A stretch of 44,129 nucleotides of DNA, taken from Deltaproteobacteria bacterium. GTDB taxonomy: Bacteria; Myxococcota_A; UBA9160; SMWR01. Below, in pieces: positions 37,901 through 43,900 of the stretch. The position numbers are program-made. Every line of letters starts with the position of its first letter. Position 1 is the stretch's first letter. The DNA is taken from positions 1 to 44,129 of the forward strand of contig JAQBGU010000061.1 in assembly GCA_032128375.1 (NCBI GenBank). Reading direction: 5' to 3'.

Positions 37901-40900
37901 TTCGGCTCGATGCTGTCTAGCGGGGCCCTGCCGCGATCACCGCTTCGCCGAAGTGGGCCACATTTTCGATGTACATCGCGCGCGTGGCGCTCGGGACGCC
38001 GACGCTCACCCAGTTCACGCCGATTGCATCCAGCGCATGAATCTGGTCGACGAGTTTCGATGCATCGAAGTCGTCTCGCGCGTTCATTGCGTTTTCGAAC
38101 GGCACGAAGTTGATGTCGAGCGGTGCTTCGCGGCCTTCCTCGCTCGCACAATCGCGCAGGTAGTTGATTTTTCCTGCCAGGTCATCGAGGTTCTCGATCG
38201 CGGCGGTTCGGGTGCGGTTGCTGAACCTGGCCGCTATCGGAAAGGGGCTCCAGCCCTGCGCATATCGCGCGGCCCGACGGATCGCGACTTTGCTGTTGCC
38301 ACCTATCCAGATTGGCGGATGCGGACGTTGGATCGGTCGGGGCAGCATCGTGTTGCCGGTGGCCTCGAAGCCATGCCCTGCAAACCGCACGGACTCCCCC
38401 GACCACGCGAGCTTCATCGCGACGAGGGCTTCGTCGGTCAACTCGTTGCGCGCCGAAAAGTCGGCGCCCAACGCGTGGTACTCGGCCTCGAGATAACCCG
38501 CTGCGATTCCGACAATCACACGTCCACCCGAAAGCACATCGAGGCTCGCGATCGACTTCGCGATCAGAAACGGGTTGCGATACGCGAGAACCAGAATGTT
38601 GGTGTGTAGCCGCAGGCGCTCGGTTGCTGTGGCCACCGCCGTGAGCGCAACGAATGGATCGAGCGCGTGATGGCCCCCGCTGTCGAGCCAGTCGTCCGAG
38701 GGGAACGGATGTTCTGTGACAAAGCAGGCGTCGAACCCGGCCGCTTCGGCGGCTTGGGCCATTTCGCAAATGGCGCCAACGCTGACGAACTCGCCGAGCT
38801 GGTCGACCCGATCGGTGGGCAGTTGGACGGAATAGCGCATCGCTCACCCGCAGCCTGGCCGGTGATCGTACCATTTCGAGCTTGGCCGGTGGTAGACAGC
38901 ATGCCAAAACTTCGACTGGAGTCGAGAACGTGACGATCGCGGTCATTTGCTGGCCAGGCGTTTCGTGCGGGCCGTGTCACGCCGACCCAAGGGATTCGGC
39001 CCCAGCTCTAGTGCACCTCGAGTTCGCTTAGGCTTCGGATGATTGCGGCCGGGGCTCGATTGGCGAAATCTTCCGCGACGCACGTTCCGGTCAGAACCGC
39101 CACGATCGAAATACCCGCCGCGCTTGCGGCGATCGCATCGATAAAGTGGTCGCCGACGTAGATCGCTTCTGATCGAACCACGTCAAGGCGCTCGCATGCC
39201 AGCACCAGGGCTTCGGGGTCCGGTTTCAGCCGTTCAACATCCTCTCCCCCGACGATGACCGAAAACGCGGATGCGAGCCCGTGCGTCTGGAGGATTTCTT
39301 CGATTCGGTAGCGGAACTTCGTCGATGCGATGCCAAGCCGCAGCCCACGGTCACAGAGTCGCTTTGCGATCGACGCGACGTCCGGATACGGTAGCGTGAG
39401 CTGCGCCATGACCTGGTCGGCGCGCTCGACGAACGCGGCTTCGAACACGGCAATCGCGCTGGGGTCGGCGTTCGCGGTCAACTGTACGCAGGTTTCGCGC
39501 AGCGAAAGCCCGACCGTGTGTCGAATGCGCTCTGGGTTGGCTTCGCCAATCCCGAGCCTGCGCAGCGCGAAGTTCGCGCACTCGATTGCACCCGCCGACG
39601 AATCAGCCAGCGTGTAGTCGAAGTCGAACAGAACCGCGCGGGTTCGCTGCTGCCTGAGTGCGGGATGAATCAATGTCGGCAGCACTTCGCCAAAAAAGTG
39701 ACGATCCGATTCGAATATCGGATGGAGTGCACGGTGCTGGTGCGCTTCGATCCAGTGTGCTCCGGCGACCTCGCGTCCGTCCGGCTCGAGCGCGCCGCCG
39801 ATGATGTCAGCCGCCCACCAGTGGAGTCGAAACTCCCCACCTTGACTCACGCTGTGCCATACGCGACAAATCGGCTTCACCACGAAGCCGACCTCTTCTT
39901 GAACCTCGCGGACGAGCGCTGCCTCGATAGACTCGCCGGGTTCTACCTTGCCGCTCACCGGAGCCCAATAACCGGGAAACGGGACATCGGCACCGCGTTG
40001 GATCATGAGTACCTGGTTTCCGCGAAACAAGATTGCGACGACGCCGTCTCGCATGCTCAGCCAGTGATCCGCTTCCACACCGCGATTTTTTCTCTCAAAG
40101 ACAGGGCGGCGTGCGCGGGGCTCGTCGATGGAAGCCGCAGGTAAGTGATCGGATCGGGGTCGGCTAGTGTCGGCGAGACGAGTCTGTGATAGGCGTTTTC
40201 GGCCTTCGCGCCGTTGAAGTAGACGCGGTCGACTTTCGGATGCGCTTCGAAGAACGCAGCGAAGTCGTTCGGAACGATCGACGCGTCGACGATGTCCGAA
40301 TCGAGACTCGATTTGCGACGGCACGCGTTCATCACATCCCACAGTGCGACCCGGTTCGCAGTCAGCTGCCGGAGCCGCTCTGGGTAGGGTGCGTCAGACG
40401 CGATGCCGAACAGATGCTCGATGATCTTCCAAAATGCGTTGCGCGGGTGCGCGTAATACTGCTGGGCCGACAGCGATGCTTTGCCTGGCATGCTGCCGAG
40501 GATCAACACGTTCGCGTTAGTGCACGATACCGGTGCGAAACTCTGTATCGGTTGCATTCCCGCCTCGAGTCGTCTGTCGTGGATTCGCGCCCAACCAGCT
40601 GACCCGCGTCGGTCCTTCCGCCTCTACGGGCTCAACGAGAACAGCCCCACTGCTCGTCCGGGAAAATTGCGGCTCCGGCTGGTCGCAAACCACAGGCTAT
40701 CATCAAACCGCCGGCGAGCTGCCCTTTTCACGGCTCTGGCGAGAGTGTCGGAGTGAGGTTGGAAGTCAACTACATCGCATTGGCGGCACCGGCGTTCCTG
40801 CTGTTGATCGGGCTCGAGCTGTTCGTTGTGCGCAGAGACAAACGCGAGTACTACCGGTTGTCCGATTCGATGAACAATATGGCGACCGGCATCCTCCAGC

Positions 40901-43900
40901 AGCTGATTGCGATCCTGTGCGCCGTCTGGATCGTGGGAGTCTACGCGTGGATCCACGAGAGTTTACGACTCTTCGATCTGTCGGACACAAACGTGTGGGT
41001 CTGGGTCGCCTGCTTCATTGCGATCGACTTCGCCTACTACTGGTACCATCGGCTCGCTCACGAGGTCAACTTTCTGTGGGCGAGCCACATTGCCCACCAC
41101 CAGAGCGAGGAATACAACCTCAGCGTGGCCCTCCGACAGGGGGCCTTCCTGCCGCTGTTTTCCTGTGTGTTCTACTGGCCGATCGCGTTGATCGGGTTTC
41201 CGCCTGCAATCTTTGCGGCCTGTCTGGCGTTCGACACGCTCTACCAGTTCTGGATCCACACGCGTACGATCGCGCGGCTTGGCCCGCTGGAAGCGGTTTT
41301 CATGACGCCCTCCCATCACCGGGTGCATCACGGCCGCAACCCGGTCTATATCGATCGGAATCACGGTGGATGTTTCATCGTCTGGGACAAGTGGTTTGGC
41401 ACCTTCGAACCCGAGACGGAAGAGGTGGTGTTTGGGATCACCAAGAAGCTCGGCAGCTGGAACCCGGTGTGGGCAAACTTCCACTACTGGATCGAGATCG
41501 GATCGGCCGCGCTTCGCACGCATCGGGTTCGCGACAAGTTTCTGATGTTCGTCAAACCACCGGGTTGGTACCCGGAAGACCTGGGTGGATTCAGTCCTGC
41601 ACCACAGCTCGAGCGGCCGACGAAGAAGTTCGATCCGCCGCTGCCGCGCCGCACTGCGGTCTACTGCGCGTTGCAATTCGTTCAAGCGCTCTTGCTGGCC
41701 TCGGCGATTCCGGCGCTGGCGGGAGGCTTCGAGCCCGCCGCACTGTGGTTGGCTGCTGGCCTCGTGACCTGGTCGCTGCTCAACACGGGCGTACTCGCCG
41801 ACGGTCGCCGCTGGGCCGTCGGGTCCGAACTCGTTCGTGTCATCGCGACACCGCTCTTATGTGTTCCGCTGGTACCCGCGATCGGTATCTGGGTTCCCAT
41901 CGCACTGGCGCTCAACATCGTCCCGCTGGTCCAGTGGATTCGTGCTGCTCGCGGATGAGGCGTTTCGAGAGCCCAAGATCGCGTCCTTTCGAGCCGCATC
42001 GCTCCTGCGGCGACATCAGCTTGGGAGAATGGGCCAGCGGTAGATGTCAACCGGGTGGCTTAGCGACTCACAATAGGGTAACAGCCACGATCAACTCAGG
42101 TGCCGTGGCTCACCTGCATAGAATCTGACAAGTGTTAGATGCTATGCGGGTCGTTCCTGTCCTCCTTCATGGAACAACAACACCTTGAAGGAGGAACCTG
42201 TGTCCACAACAACAACGACCCGCACACTTGACGATACCTCACGCGAAACTTGTCTATTTCTGGCATTTGAGCTGGGTGAGAAAGAGTGAAAGATCGCTTG
42301 CGCGACATCCAAGATGCACGCTCACTCCAGCGGGAGTTCCGCACACTCGTCAAGGAACGCACACGTTCGAGCAACCGGATCCGAGGGCTTCTGTCTGGTC
42401 ACGGCCTGGTAGGCGGTCGATTGCGGCTCCGCGGTAAAGTGCGAGGGTGAACACCCACGGGCATGCGAGCCGCGTCCTGAAATCAAGGTGTCGCCAGTTC
42501 GATTCTCGCCTGGGCCACCACGAGTGCGTCGGGGTCTCAGACACGCGGGTCCCTGTGCCTCGCGACATCCTCACTCTCCTCTCGACGAGCCTACCGCCCC
42601 AATCGCCTCGCCTCCGGGCTGCACCACGCAAGACGCGCGGATGCGCCGCCCCCTTTCACGCAAAGAAGAGCCCTTTCATCCGAATGGATTACACACAAGG
42701 ATGTCACACATGAGAGCATGTACATTGATGGTGCGGCGCATCGGTGAGGCGGGAACGCGCGAAGGCGCTGCTAGAGGATTGATTGACACACCGACGGGCC
42801 GGGGTGTAGCGTAACCGCCCGGAACAGGAATTCCTGTCCCCTGGAGGATATCCCAATGCCGTCTCGTCGCTACGCCGTCTCCCGAAGTACACGCCTTGCC
42901 ACCGTCGGTCTCCTCGCTCTCGCAGCGCTGCTCATGGCGCCCAACACCTGCGGGAACGCATGGACGATCGAGATCCTCTCGAGCGCCCCGCATCAGGTGA
43001 GTGGCGGCGACGCGCTGGTGCGGGTGGGATTTCCCGGCGGTGTCCTCAAGCCGAACGCAGTCCTGCTGTTGAACGGAGCGGACGTGACGGACTCGCTCGC
43101 GCCCGACGGCGGAAACCTGGTGGGCGTGGTCGAGGGGTTCACCCTCGGCAGCAACCTGCTCGAGCTGAAGGGGAACGCAAATGCCACCGCGGTGAAGGCG
43201 GTGCTCCTCGCAACCAATCACCCGGAGAGCGGACCGATCTTCTCGGGCCCCCAGCAGCAGCCCTTCGTCTGCACGACGGCGCGCGCGTCGCTCGGGCAAC
43301 CGATCGTCGACAACCAGGACGAGATCGGCATCCCGGTGGCTCTCGAGGACGGGAACGGGAACTACCCCAGCGATGGGAGGGGCTATCCGACGGCCGGGGC
43401 CGAGATCGTGGGCTGGAGCAAGGACTGCGCCGGCGAGCGGCGCCTCGATTACCTGTACCGCTCGACGGGCGGCCAGTTCCTCCCCCTCGACAGTCCCGGT
43501 GTACCGCTGCCCGGCGACATCGCCATGACGACGACCCTCGACGGGCAGACCGCCCCCTACATCGTGCGCTGGGAGCGCGGCACCAACAACCGCTTCATCT
43601 ACAGCGTCGCGATGCTGGCGCCGACCAGCGAGAGCGACCCGAACGAGCCTGACGACTCACTCTGGAACGGCCGCCTCGTCATCAGCCTCCAGGGCGGCGT
43701 TGCGATCGGTCGCACCCAGGGCACGACGAGCACGAGCGCACGGCTGCTGGACGACCAACTGCGGCTCGGTTACGCGGTGGTGAACTCGACCGGCCTGCGT
43801 ACCAACACGCACTACAACCTCCAGCTCGGCGGCGAGACCGCGCTGATGCTGAAGGAGCACTTCATCGAGGACCACGGCGTGCCCCTCTACACGGTGGGCG

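Follow-up and report, generated by a model that had tools for sequence, protein, structure and literature searches.

A predicted bacterial member of the alkylglycerol monooxygenase clade in a marine-sediment Deltaproteobacterium

Does a solitary gene from an uncultured marine-sediment bacterium, whose genome is 91% complete, encode an ether-cleaving enzyme of the animal alkylglycerol monooxygenase (AGMO, also TMEM195; EC 1.14.16.5) type, and does the same genome hold an animal-type cycle in which ether lipids are made, desaturated and cleaved with home-made tetrahydrobiopterin (BH4), as the survey's finding had proposed?

The gene and its place among AGMO-like proteins

The window, that is the whole 44,129-nucleotide stretch analysed, carries a full-length intact reading frame on the + strand that ends at 41958 and encodes 399 aa from a TTG at 40759 or 401 aa from a GTG at 40753 (Table 1). 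We favour the TTG because GGAG precedes it by 5 nt, because a 96%-identical homologue (P0002) begins at this position, and because run X4 shows a T>A change at 40754 that abolishes the GTG; residues of the window protein are numbered here from the GTG. Pfam FA_hydroxylase covers residues 84-217, the AlphaFold model has a mean pLDDT of 94.3 (alignment of 134 rows), and the codon pattern is similar to that of the neighbours (GC3 of 0.78 versus 0.71-0.76). The 399-aa FA_hydroxylase-fold gene described by the survey is real. The divergent glycosylase gene upstream recurs only beside one 81%-identical copy (L006), and no lipid or pterin genes lie next to the window gene, in agreement with the earlier caveat that it stands alone.

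Table 1. Coordinates of the gene, its sites and its neighbour in the window
Feature	Position	Strand	Basis
DNA-deoxyinosine glycosylase, divergent neighbour, no functional link	40057..40557	-	TIGR04274, 170.8 bits (cut-off 80)
Likely ribosome-binding site GGAG, 5 nt before TTG 40759	40750..40753	+	Sequence and homologue start; inference
Predicted AGMO-clade membrane di-iron oxygenase gene	40759..41958	+	ORF, Pfam, animal AGMO alignments, tree, AlphaFold model
His boxes 1 and 2: H99, H103, H112, H115, H116 (human H132, H136, H145, H148, H149)	41047..41100	+	Residue map, animal alignment
E104 (human Glu137)	41062-41064	+	Residue map, animal alignment
Leu133 at the human Gln166 position	41149..41151	+	Strain-level variant
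Ninth His H169 (human H201) and His box 3 H189, H192, H193 (human H221, H224, H225)	41257..41331	+	Residue map, animal alignment
D201, N203, W211, D212 (human D233, N235, W243, D244) kept; H204 for human Tyr236	41353..41388	+	Residue map
C-terminal four-helix membrane domain, AGMP_C-like	41635..41955	+	Weak PF24858, aligned columns

Identity to animal AGMO-type proteins amounts to 34% over 390 residues (fish) and 34% over 357 residues (centipede), close to the 35-39% first claimed, and a chordate AGMO cluster appears in the ESM Atlas at 0.93, after bacterial clusters at 0.97. The five other FA-hydroxylases of the genome show 19-25% identity to the animal proteins, versus 38.6% for the window protein. 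In an LG+G4 tree of the catalytic core alone, in which five animal rows derive from fused gene models, a single clade with moderate support (86/95; FastTree 95) unites the animal AGMOs with 22 of the 24 full-length bacterial rows, and all 12 short forms fall outside. The full-length bacterial forms are thus sister to animal AGMO at moderate support, and by sequence the window gene is assigned to the AGMO clade; its protein ranks 17th of 64 bacterial AGMO-like rows in closeness to animals, no closer than other bacterial members.

Such a gene is not unusual in bacteria. At least 7,914 homologues exist, a match at E<=1e-20 occurs in 52 of 121 genomes of the phylum and is full-length in about 25-26 of these, and a 2026 paper (PMC13543475) lists 239 bacterial genomes (MAGs) with an AGMO-like gene; the window protein is one among thousands of putative bacterial members, and the idea that AGMO is described only from animals and protists, with a bacterial homologue as a novelty, is not supported by these numbers or by the characterisation of the bacterial enzyme PRUB680. 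The window protein belongs with bacterial genes auto-annotated as 'alkylglycerol monooxygenase' or 'sterol desaturase family protein' (JGI names), for which the literature searched reports no ether-cleaving activity. These annotations mix full-length and short forms.

Active-site and C-terminal residues

Human AGMO residues were taken from PMC3304488 and PMC7911779 and their columns cross-checked by alignment with five animal sequences. The listed core sites match at 23 of 34 positions with one single-residue indel, versus 5 or fewer for the best alternative offsets. All nine histidines of the human set (H132, 136, 145, 148, 149, 201, 221, 224, 225) are kept, as are five of six further essential residues (Q162, D233, N235, Y236, W243, D244), which makes 14 of 15 with Tyr236 as the exception. 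The eight-His motif and the AGMO glutamate, which the survey had left unchecked, are both found, the latter as E104 in a segment that fits the animal consensus around Glu137 at 8 of 10 positions. This glutamate is non-diagnostic among bacteria: it is present in 55 of 89 full-length loci, 35 of 65 short loci and 71 of 149 representatives, occurs in an OlsE-like paralogue of the same genome, and is missing from five of the six YhhN-adjacent copies examined and from the copy in genome G120.

Several positions set the window protein apart from the animal enzymes. Histidine replaces Tyr236, a substitution shared by 119 of 121 close proteins and by 34 of 89 full-length loci; alanine is the sole mutant assayed at this site in the human enzyme and was also poorly expressed. 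His189, Gln191 and Glu203 are not kept, and an N-terminal extension of about 33 residues is missing. His189 is present in all five animal rows; in full-length bacterial loci it is not one of the eight most frequent residues, which account for 85 of 89 rows. Of the 121 aligned proteins, 120 have Gln at the human Gln166 site, and the A that runs X3 and X4 show at 41150 yields a Gln codon instead of Leu133. At the other end, the alignment with fish AGMO runs along the C-terminal membrane domain, and Y304, D350 and R362 line up with human Y338, D384 and R396, each with the same offset of 34, so that all three activity-relevant C-terminal residues are kept. PF24858 falls below its cut-off here (E 0.12, 12.8 bits versus 28.3) and passes in one of eight scanned homologues (33.6 bits); comparison of the C-terminal domain returned helix-bundle matches only. 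The ornithine lipid hydroxylase OlsE (NF052566) shares the Pfam family and the His boxes, but the window protein scores 57 bits against a cut-off of 475, and a different paralogue, on contig C126, is closer to that model at 204 bits.

Lipid, pterin and neighbouring genes across the family

The lipid genes that the survey had named were borne out in part. A Lipid_desat gene is present on C35 (PF10520, 168 bits; CarF model NF045946, 150 bits with a cut-off of 500, the match being interrupted by a low-complexity insert), and so are two alkyl-DHAP-synthase-like FAD proteins, but these reach 204-233 bits against solved alkyl-DHAP synthase (AGPS) versus 535 for the true myxobacterial AGPS of G120, to which they are 28-29% identical, and are not supported as true AGPS; one is encoded within a glycerophosphate-oxidase / FGGY-kinase operon. 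A true AGPS was not found in the 91%-complete genome, nor was a fatty acyl reductase or ElbD-like domain (best PF07993, NAD_binding_4, 48 bits versus 191), and tblastn with the G120 protein matched its acyltransferase part only, the reductase half finding nothing; the 'make' arm of the proposed cycle is not supported. Relative to the aerobic pathway of Myxococcus xanthus (ElbD, MXAN_1676-1674, CarF), for which no degradative AGMO is described, the genome shares a CarF-like desaturase, whereas ElbD, acyl reductase and true AGPS were not found. Nor do CarF and AGMO co-occur as a link between them had implied: CarF is found in 9 of 26 genomes with a full-length AGMO-like gene versus 26 of 95 others, independently across the 121 genomes, and in one family (f14) all 11 genomes have CarF and none has a full-length AGMO-like gene.

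The tetrahydrobiopterin toolkit stands as a set of genes, but a dedicated pathway is not supported. Two PTPS-family genes and folE lie on C144, and a PCD that passes its model cut-off on C147; the second PTPS gene has the biopterin-type PTPS-II motif CxxxxxHGH, with 6-pyruvoyl tetrahydropterin synthases as its best solved relatives, and the first is without the Cys. GTP cyclohydrolase I (TIGR00063, 253 bits, cut-off 181.6) is needed for folate (FolB present) and queuosine too, and since QueC is present and a QueD-motif gene was not found, the PTPS pair could serve a different purpose. Within the class this pair is present in 15 of 22 genomes, of which only three have a full-length AGMO-like gene, and a close PTPS-II homologue occurs in none of the 22-23 full-length carriers outside the class. 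Among 44 SDR matches in the 91%-complete genome none passes the sepiapterin reductase cut-off (best 55 bits versus 206.55, a benzil-reductase-like SDR), and FolM was not identified, its best match being a gluconate-5-dehydrogenase-type SDR, with no search made using a model of dihydropteridine reductase. An aromatic amino acid hydroxylase was not found in this genome; PCD without such a hydroxylase is seen in 59 of 121 phylum genomes, 34 of which have an AGMO-like gene and 15 a full-length one. Co-occurrence of PCD with the full-length gene is weak (22 of 26 versus 63 of 95, p 0.09), and PCD and an AGMO-like gene lie within 3 kb in three of 48 phylum genomes with both, from three families (about 0.05 expected, post hoc), versus 0 of 42 outside the phylum.

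Elsewhere in the family, seven of the 25 Bacteroidota genomes with both genes have the YhhN lysoplasmalogenase gene immediately downstream of the AGMO-like one (about 0.01 expected), and one AGMO-YhhN fusion was found (P0276). The genome studied here also has YhhN, but adjacency was seen neither there nor in any of 20 other YhhN-bearing genomes of the phylum. In G120 the AGMO-like gene lies divergently beside an operon that encodes AGPS, an acyl-reductase-acyltransferase and an epimerase and resembles MXAN_1676-1674, an arrangement unique among 31 genomes of its order. Family context (YhhN adjacency, one fusion, one ether-lipid operon) favours ether-lipid breakdown.

Competing readings and meaning for the family

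Our leading reading, held tentatively and at somewhat less than even confidence, is a predicted di-iron oxygenase that cleaves scavenged alkyl-ether lipids, probably with a tetrahydropterin. It would be an inner-membrane, oxygen-dependent monooxygenase with two irons held by the nine histidines. Its substrate would be a 1-O-alkylglycerol or lyso-alkyl-phospholipid, hydroxylated at the carbon that adjoins the ether oxygen; the resulting hemiacetal would break into a fatty aldehyde and glycerol (or a glycerophospho-base) that enter ordinary catabolism. Electrons would most likely come from a tetrahydropterin near Glu104, supplied by FolE and the PTPS-II-type enzyme and recycled via PCD and a further reductase, and the cell would more probably obtain the substrate from sediment, prey or animal debris than synthesise it.

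A distinctly possible, if doubtful, alternative is a membrane hydroxylase or desaturase whose substrate is a lipid without an ether bond (acyl chain, ornithine lipid, sphingolipid, sterol or hopanoid) and whose electrons come from NAD(P)H via ferredoxin or cytochrome b5. Such chemistry with these electron carriers is the default of the fatty acid hydroxylase superfamily, and no member besides AGMO has been reported to require BH4 (PMC3304488). The free replacement of Glu137 across the bacterial clade, the departures at human Y236, H189, Q191 and E203, and close relatives lying amid acyl-CoA ligase and acyl-CoA dehydrogenase genes (G057, G021) speak for it, whereas grouping with AGMO apart from the genome's other FA-hydroxylases, the low OlsE score, the retained AGMO-specific C-terminal residues and the YhhN linkage and fusion speak against it. 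The only characterised bacterial AGMO-like enzyme, PRUB680 of Pseudoalteromonas rubra, is a prodigiosin cyclase (de Rond 2017) and implies that substrate can shift within the group; it is reported to lie away from its pathway genes and to perform oxidative C-H activation on an alkyl chain, closing a C-C ring in a pigment instead of cleaving an ether. A stand-alone tailoring oxidase of this kind for a hydrophobic small molecule, to which the likewise unclustered window gene might correspond, is unlikely, as the clade spans many phyla with no common biosynthetic neighbours and the 2026 survey deems cycloprodigiosin production by its AGMO/PRUB680-bearing genomes improbable.

Still less likely is the full animal-type cycle. 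Every named gene family is present, YhhN included, one PTPS has the PTPS-II motif, the benzil-reductase-like SDR is the best, though sub-threshold, match to the sepiapterin reductase model, and with the genome at 91% completeness a reductase could be absent from the assembly; against this stand the low AGPS and CarF scores, the operon around one AGPS-like gene, the unfound fatty acyl reductase, the independence of CarF and AGMO-like genes, and the fact that the vinyl ether made by CarF is not cleaved by AGMO. That this strain carries a weakened or inactive copy appears very improbable: Q166L and Y236H fall at sites where alanine reduces or abolishes human activity, but the frame is intact with a neighbour-like codon pattern, Y236H is common to nearly all close proteins, and Q166L is a one-letter strain variant.

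Returning to the ether-cleaving reading, its activity and cofactor are predictions here. Its extension, rather unlikely as a whole, is that the window protein, together with the bacterial clade around it, consists of true monooxygenases that cleave alkyl ethers and depend on a tetrahydropterin. This would constitute the first bacterial AGMO activity, a route by which aerobic bacteria mineralise ether lipids in sediments, one of the missing users of PCD genes without an aromatic amino acid hydroxylase partner, and the bacterial sister lineage of the animal enzyme. The importance is the family's rather than the locus's: the window copy is solitary and its organism uncultured, and experiments would be better served by clade members whose hosts can be grown or whose genes are linked to YhhN. 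A bacterial member with the catalytic residues and a confident in silico fold offers a practical way of studying the structure and mechanism of the third pterin-dependent enzyme class and, if active, the clade would supply bacteria with a described route of ether-lipid breakdown.

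The window gene and the AGMO clade

The AGMO-like gene resides in a genome of 6.2 Mb, 91% complete (G000, contig C61), and its product is closest among named relatives to a protein labelled Myxococcota (L006, 81% identity); the three sequencing runs that best match the window DNA are marine sediment metagenomes, possibly its source. It is flanked by a divergent DNA-deoxyinosine glycosylase gene and, downstream, by a decayed IS110-like stretch, and none of the 11 window neighbours scanned is a lipid or pterin gene, in agreement with the survey's finding that the gene stands alone. 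Clustering of the neighbours of 80 loci revealed lineage-local synteny only and no conserved neighbourhood. A single RNA run yielded four short fragments, none of them a near-identical match across the gene, which has no bearing on expression either way. The GC3 of the DUF6351 gene that follows the IS110-like remnant is far higher than elsewhere (0.90 versus 0.71-0.78), suggesting a different origin.

Coordinates of the features discussed in this part
Feature	Location	Strand	Remarks
AGMO-like ORF	window, TTG 40759 to 41958	+	399 aa
NUDIX domain and phosphoglycolate-phosphatase-like HAD domain	window, 39008-40054	-	joined in one ORF
Decayed IS110-like remnant	window, 42200-42450		stop and frame change; Pfam E 0.004, under cut-off
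DUF6351 gene	window, 42856-44129		
folE and two PTPS-family genes	G000:C144, after lexA		gene order in G000
Tandem PTPS-family pair	L001:3972-5423 (G000:C144)		between lexA and folE
Glycerophosphate-oxidase-like / AGPS-like FAD protein / FGGY kinase	L117:1-3691 (G000:C20)		operon
CarF-like desaturase, TetR regulator, AurF-like di-iron protein, SDR	L003:2042-5279 (G000:C35)		gene string
Benzil-reductase-like SDR	L119:1375-2130 (G000:C179)		
Weak FA-hydroxylase and Lipid_desat matches	G110:C36:181177-182346		same strand; each in 485-codon open frame
AGMO-like gene divergent from AGPS / acyl-reductase-acyltransferase / epimerase operon	L174:2-6654 (G120:C484)		

Using human AGMO mutagenesis data from passages of PMC3304488 and PMC7911779, projected onto the window protein (residues counted from GTG 40753) with offsets of 33 then 32, we find agreement at 23 of 34 listed core sites, 14 of the 15 essential ones among them, with other offsets giving at most five matches each. 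The ungapped numbering holds up to residue 174, one single-residue indel restores agreement beyond, and the C-terminal human Y338, D384 and R396 correspond to Y304, D350 and R362, each shifted by the same 34 positions. Human Glu137, a residue left unchecked by the survey, is retained as E104. The sole essential site to differ is Tyr236, where the window protein has His; Leu133, which occupies the position of human Gln166, is strain-level variation.

Five animal AGMO-type sequences, located inside fused gene models, came from a search among longer proteins, and the window protein is 34% identical to AGMO-type proteins of both a fish (390 residues) and a centipede (357 residues). In an IQ-TREE analysis of the catalytic core (43 rows) the five animal rows group with 22 of the 24 full-length bacterial ones at a support of 86/95, leaving all 12 short forms outside, and FastTree on 74 rows supports the same grouping at 95; support is moderate overall, protists are not among the rows, and nothing is asserted about the direction of any transfer. 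Ranking 17th of 64 bacterial AGMO-like rows in likeness to animals, the window protein shows no particular closeness to the animal enzymes, and by sequence and tree it is assigned to the AGMO clade. A PDB sequence search returned no matches, a single-sequence structure prediction was discarded (pLDDT 42), Foldseek with a good model found nothing at E≤0.001, and a fold search recovered generic four-helix bundles only (Z up to 11), for residues 295-401; these fold results have no bearing on fold novelty.

Ether-lipid and pterin genes of the genome

The survey had proposed an animal-type cycle in which ether lipids are made by AGPS, desaturated by CarF and cleaved by AGMO. The first of these arms finds no counterpart: two AGPS-like proteins reach 204-233 bits against solved AGPS, versus the 535 bits that a true myxobacterial AGPS, met by chance in genome G120, scores with the solved mammalian enzyme; to this G120 protein they are 28-29% identical. 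The 91% complete G000 yielded no fatty acyl reductase domain. One of the two genes sits between glycerophosphate oxidase and FGGY kinase genes, in an operon possibly devoted to catabolism of a glycerol derivative. The link to CarF likewise had to be abandoned, with CarF-like genes distributed independently (9 of 26 full-length AGMO-like carriers versus 26 of 95 others, three genomes with weak Lipid_desat being dropped), and the vinyl ether made by CarF is not an AGMO substrate according to a passage of PMC9131029. The genome's YhhN (lysoplasmalogenase) gene, on C2, is more in keeping with degradation of the two ether types than with a cycle of synthesis. The CarF-like desaturase on C35 carries a low-complexity repeated insert of ~30 residues, and the two weak matches in genome G110 may represent one fused gene.

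The tetrahydrobiopterin toolkit that was to accompany the cycle stands in part. One PTPS-family protein carries the PTPS-II motif as defined in the consulted part of PMC5041015, its best solved relatives being 6-pyruvoyl tetrahydropterin synthases; the second has no motif (catalytic) Cys. The PTPS-II finding speaks for the survey's reading. Dedication of the pair to AGMO is rejected: it is class-wide (15 of 22 genomes, only 3 of these 15 with a full-length AGMO-like gene), and no full-length carrier beyond the class was found to have it, nor was any of 99 other genomes. The presence of QueC, with no QueD-motif gene found in G000, also counts against such a role, and the pair could form a hetero-oligomer for queuosine and pterin synthesis. 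As the survey had cautioned, nothing in the 91% complete genome exceeds the cut-off for sepiapterin reductase; the best sub-threshold match to that model, the SDR on C179, is a candidate. A putative FolM on C55 proved to be an ordinary SDR.

G000 also encodes PCD, an enzyme tied in addition to molybdenum cofactor metabolism (PMC3223725, in part); an aromatic amino acid hydroxylase was looked for in this genome and not detected. The PCD gene is present in 22 of the 26 full-length carriers, which were chosen by match extent with G071 excluded, versus 63 of 95 others; G099 later looked short, and its removal (21 of 25) leaves the reading unchanged. The association with any AGMO-like match is strong (48/52 versus 37/69) but, being confounded by kinship and an aerobic way of life, is not taken as support. 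In 3 of the 48 phylum genomes with both genes (G119, G081 and G107) PCD and the AGMO-like gene are no more than 3 kb apart, as they are in none of 42 genomes from other phyla.

Glu137 and gene settings across the family

According to PMC3304488, Glu137 sets AGMO apart from the other fatty acid hydroxylases. It is conserved in the window protein's subclade (121 of 121 close proteins), but at this site 89 full-length bacterial loci have Glu 55 times, Arg 19 times and Gln 8 times, and 65 short loci have Glu 35 times, the split being set by our length filter. Given this variation and the Glu of an OlsE-like paralogue in G000, we rejected the residue as a diagnostic, and it does not decide the cofactor.

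Among 77 of 101 other positive genomes surveyed for YhhN neighbours, the gene lies immediately downstream of the AGMO-like one in 7 of 25 Bacteroidota genomes having both, and within 8 kb in 2 further Bacteroidota genomes. A scan of 15 representatives that were longer than usual or odd turned up one outright fusion (P0276, 595 aa), which joins an AGMO catalytic part retaining Glu137 to YhhN and shares 43% identity with the window protein across 282 residues. In G120 the AGMO-like gene, whose product has Arg at the Glu137 site, diverges from an ether-lipid operon, an arrangement that is a one-off among 31 genomes of the order; a close AGPS was found in just 2 of these. Most AGMO-like copies linked to ether-lipid genes lack Glu137, and the window locus has none of the YhhN, fusion or operon links. 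In Thermoanaerobaculia (L018, L020-L022, L029) the AGMO-like gene lies between bshC and a PIG-L deacetylase gene, in what looks like a bacillithiol operon.

Predicted function and place in a bacterial family

The homologues are numerous: at least 7,914 at E≤1e-20 among 8,000 candidates scored, several under the JGI name 'alkylglycerol monooxygenase', and 2,840 clusters (50% identity) at E≤1e-30 in a profile search. Of 121 genomes from the same phylum 52 have a match, as do 38 of 151 from Bacteroidota (the phylum of a Christiangramia genome) and 9 of 151 from the class to which a Solimonas genome belongs; Acidobacteriota and Planctomycetota have matches as well. A 2013 review names animals alone (PMC3617469, in the part consulted). 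The survey's belief that AGMO is described only from animals and some protists is not borne out for AGMO-like proteins: in print are PRUB680, an AGMO-like prodigiosin cyclase of Pseudoalteromonas rubra (passages of PMC6667630, PMC7911779 and PMC7484904), and AGMO-annotated genes in 239 MAGs (PMC13543475), a source that in the section consulted calls bacterial AGMO not known to be functional. Our literature search, with subscription papers mostly outside its coverage, found no report of ether-cleaving activity for any bacterial AGMO-like protein.

We tentatively propose, with somewhat less than even confidence, that the window protein would work like AGMO and cleave scavenged ether lipids. The family context, with its YhhN and operon neighbours, favours such substrates; a hydroxylase of non-ether lipids, a doubtful reading yet a substantial one, has that context against it. 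Cleavage specifically with a tetrahydropterin, for which the PTPS-II protein and PCD may be invoked, is somewhat unlikely. PRUB680 offers precedent for a small-molecule oxidase, which seems decidedly improbable, and the full animal-type cycle, despite the CarF-like gene, is slightly more so in view of its missing 'make' arm. An impaired copy is the most improbable of all. Cleavage of scavenged ether lipids stays our provisional reading for a gene that is an additional member of a large bacterial group already known, within which the activity is putative.
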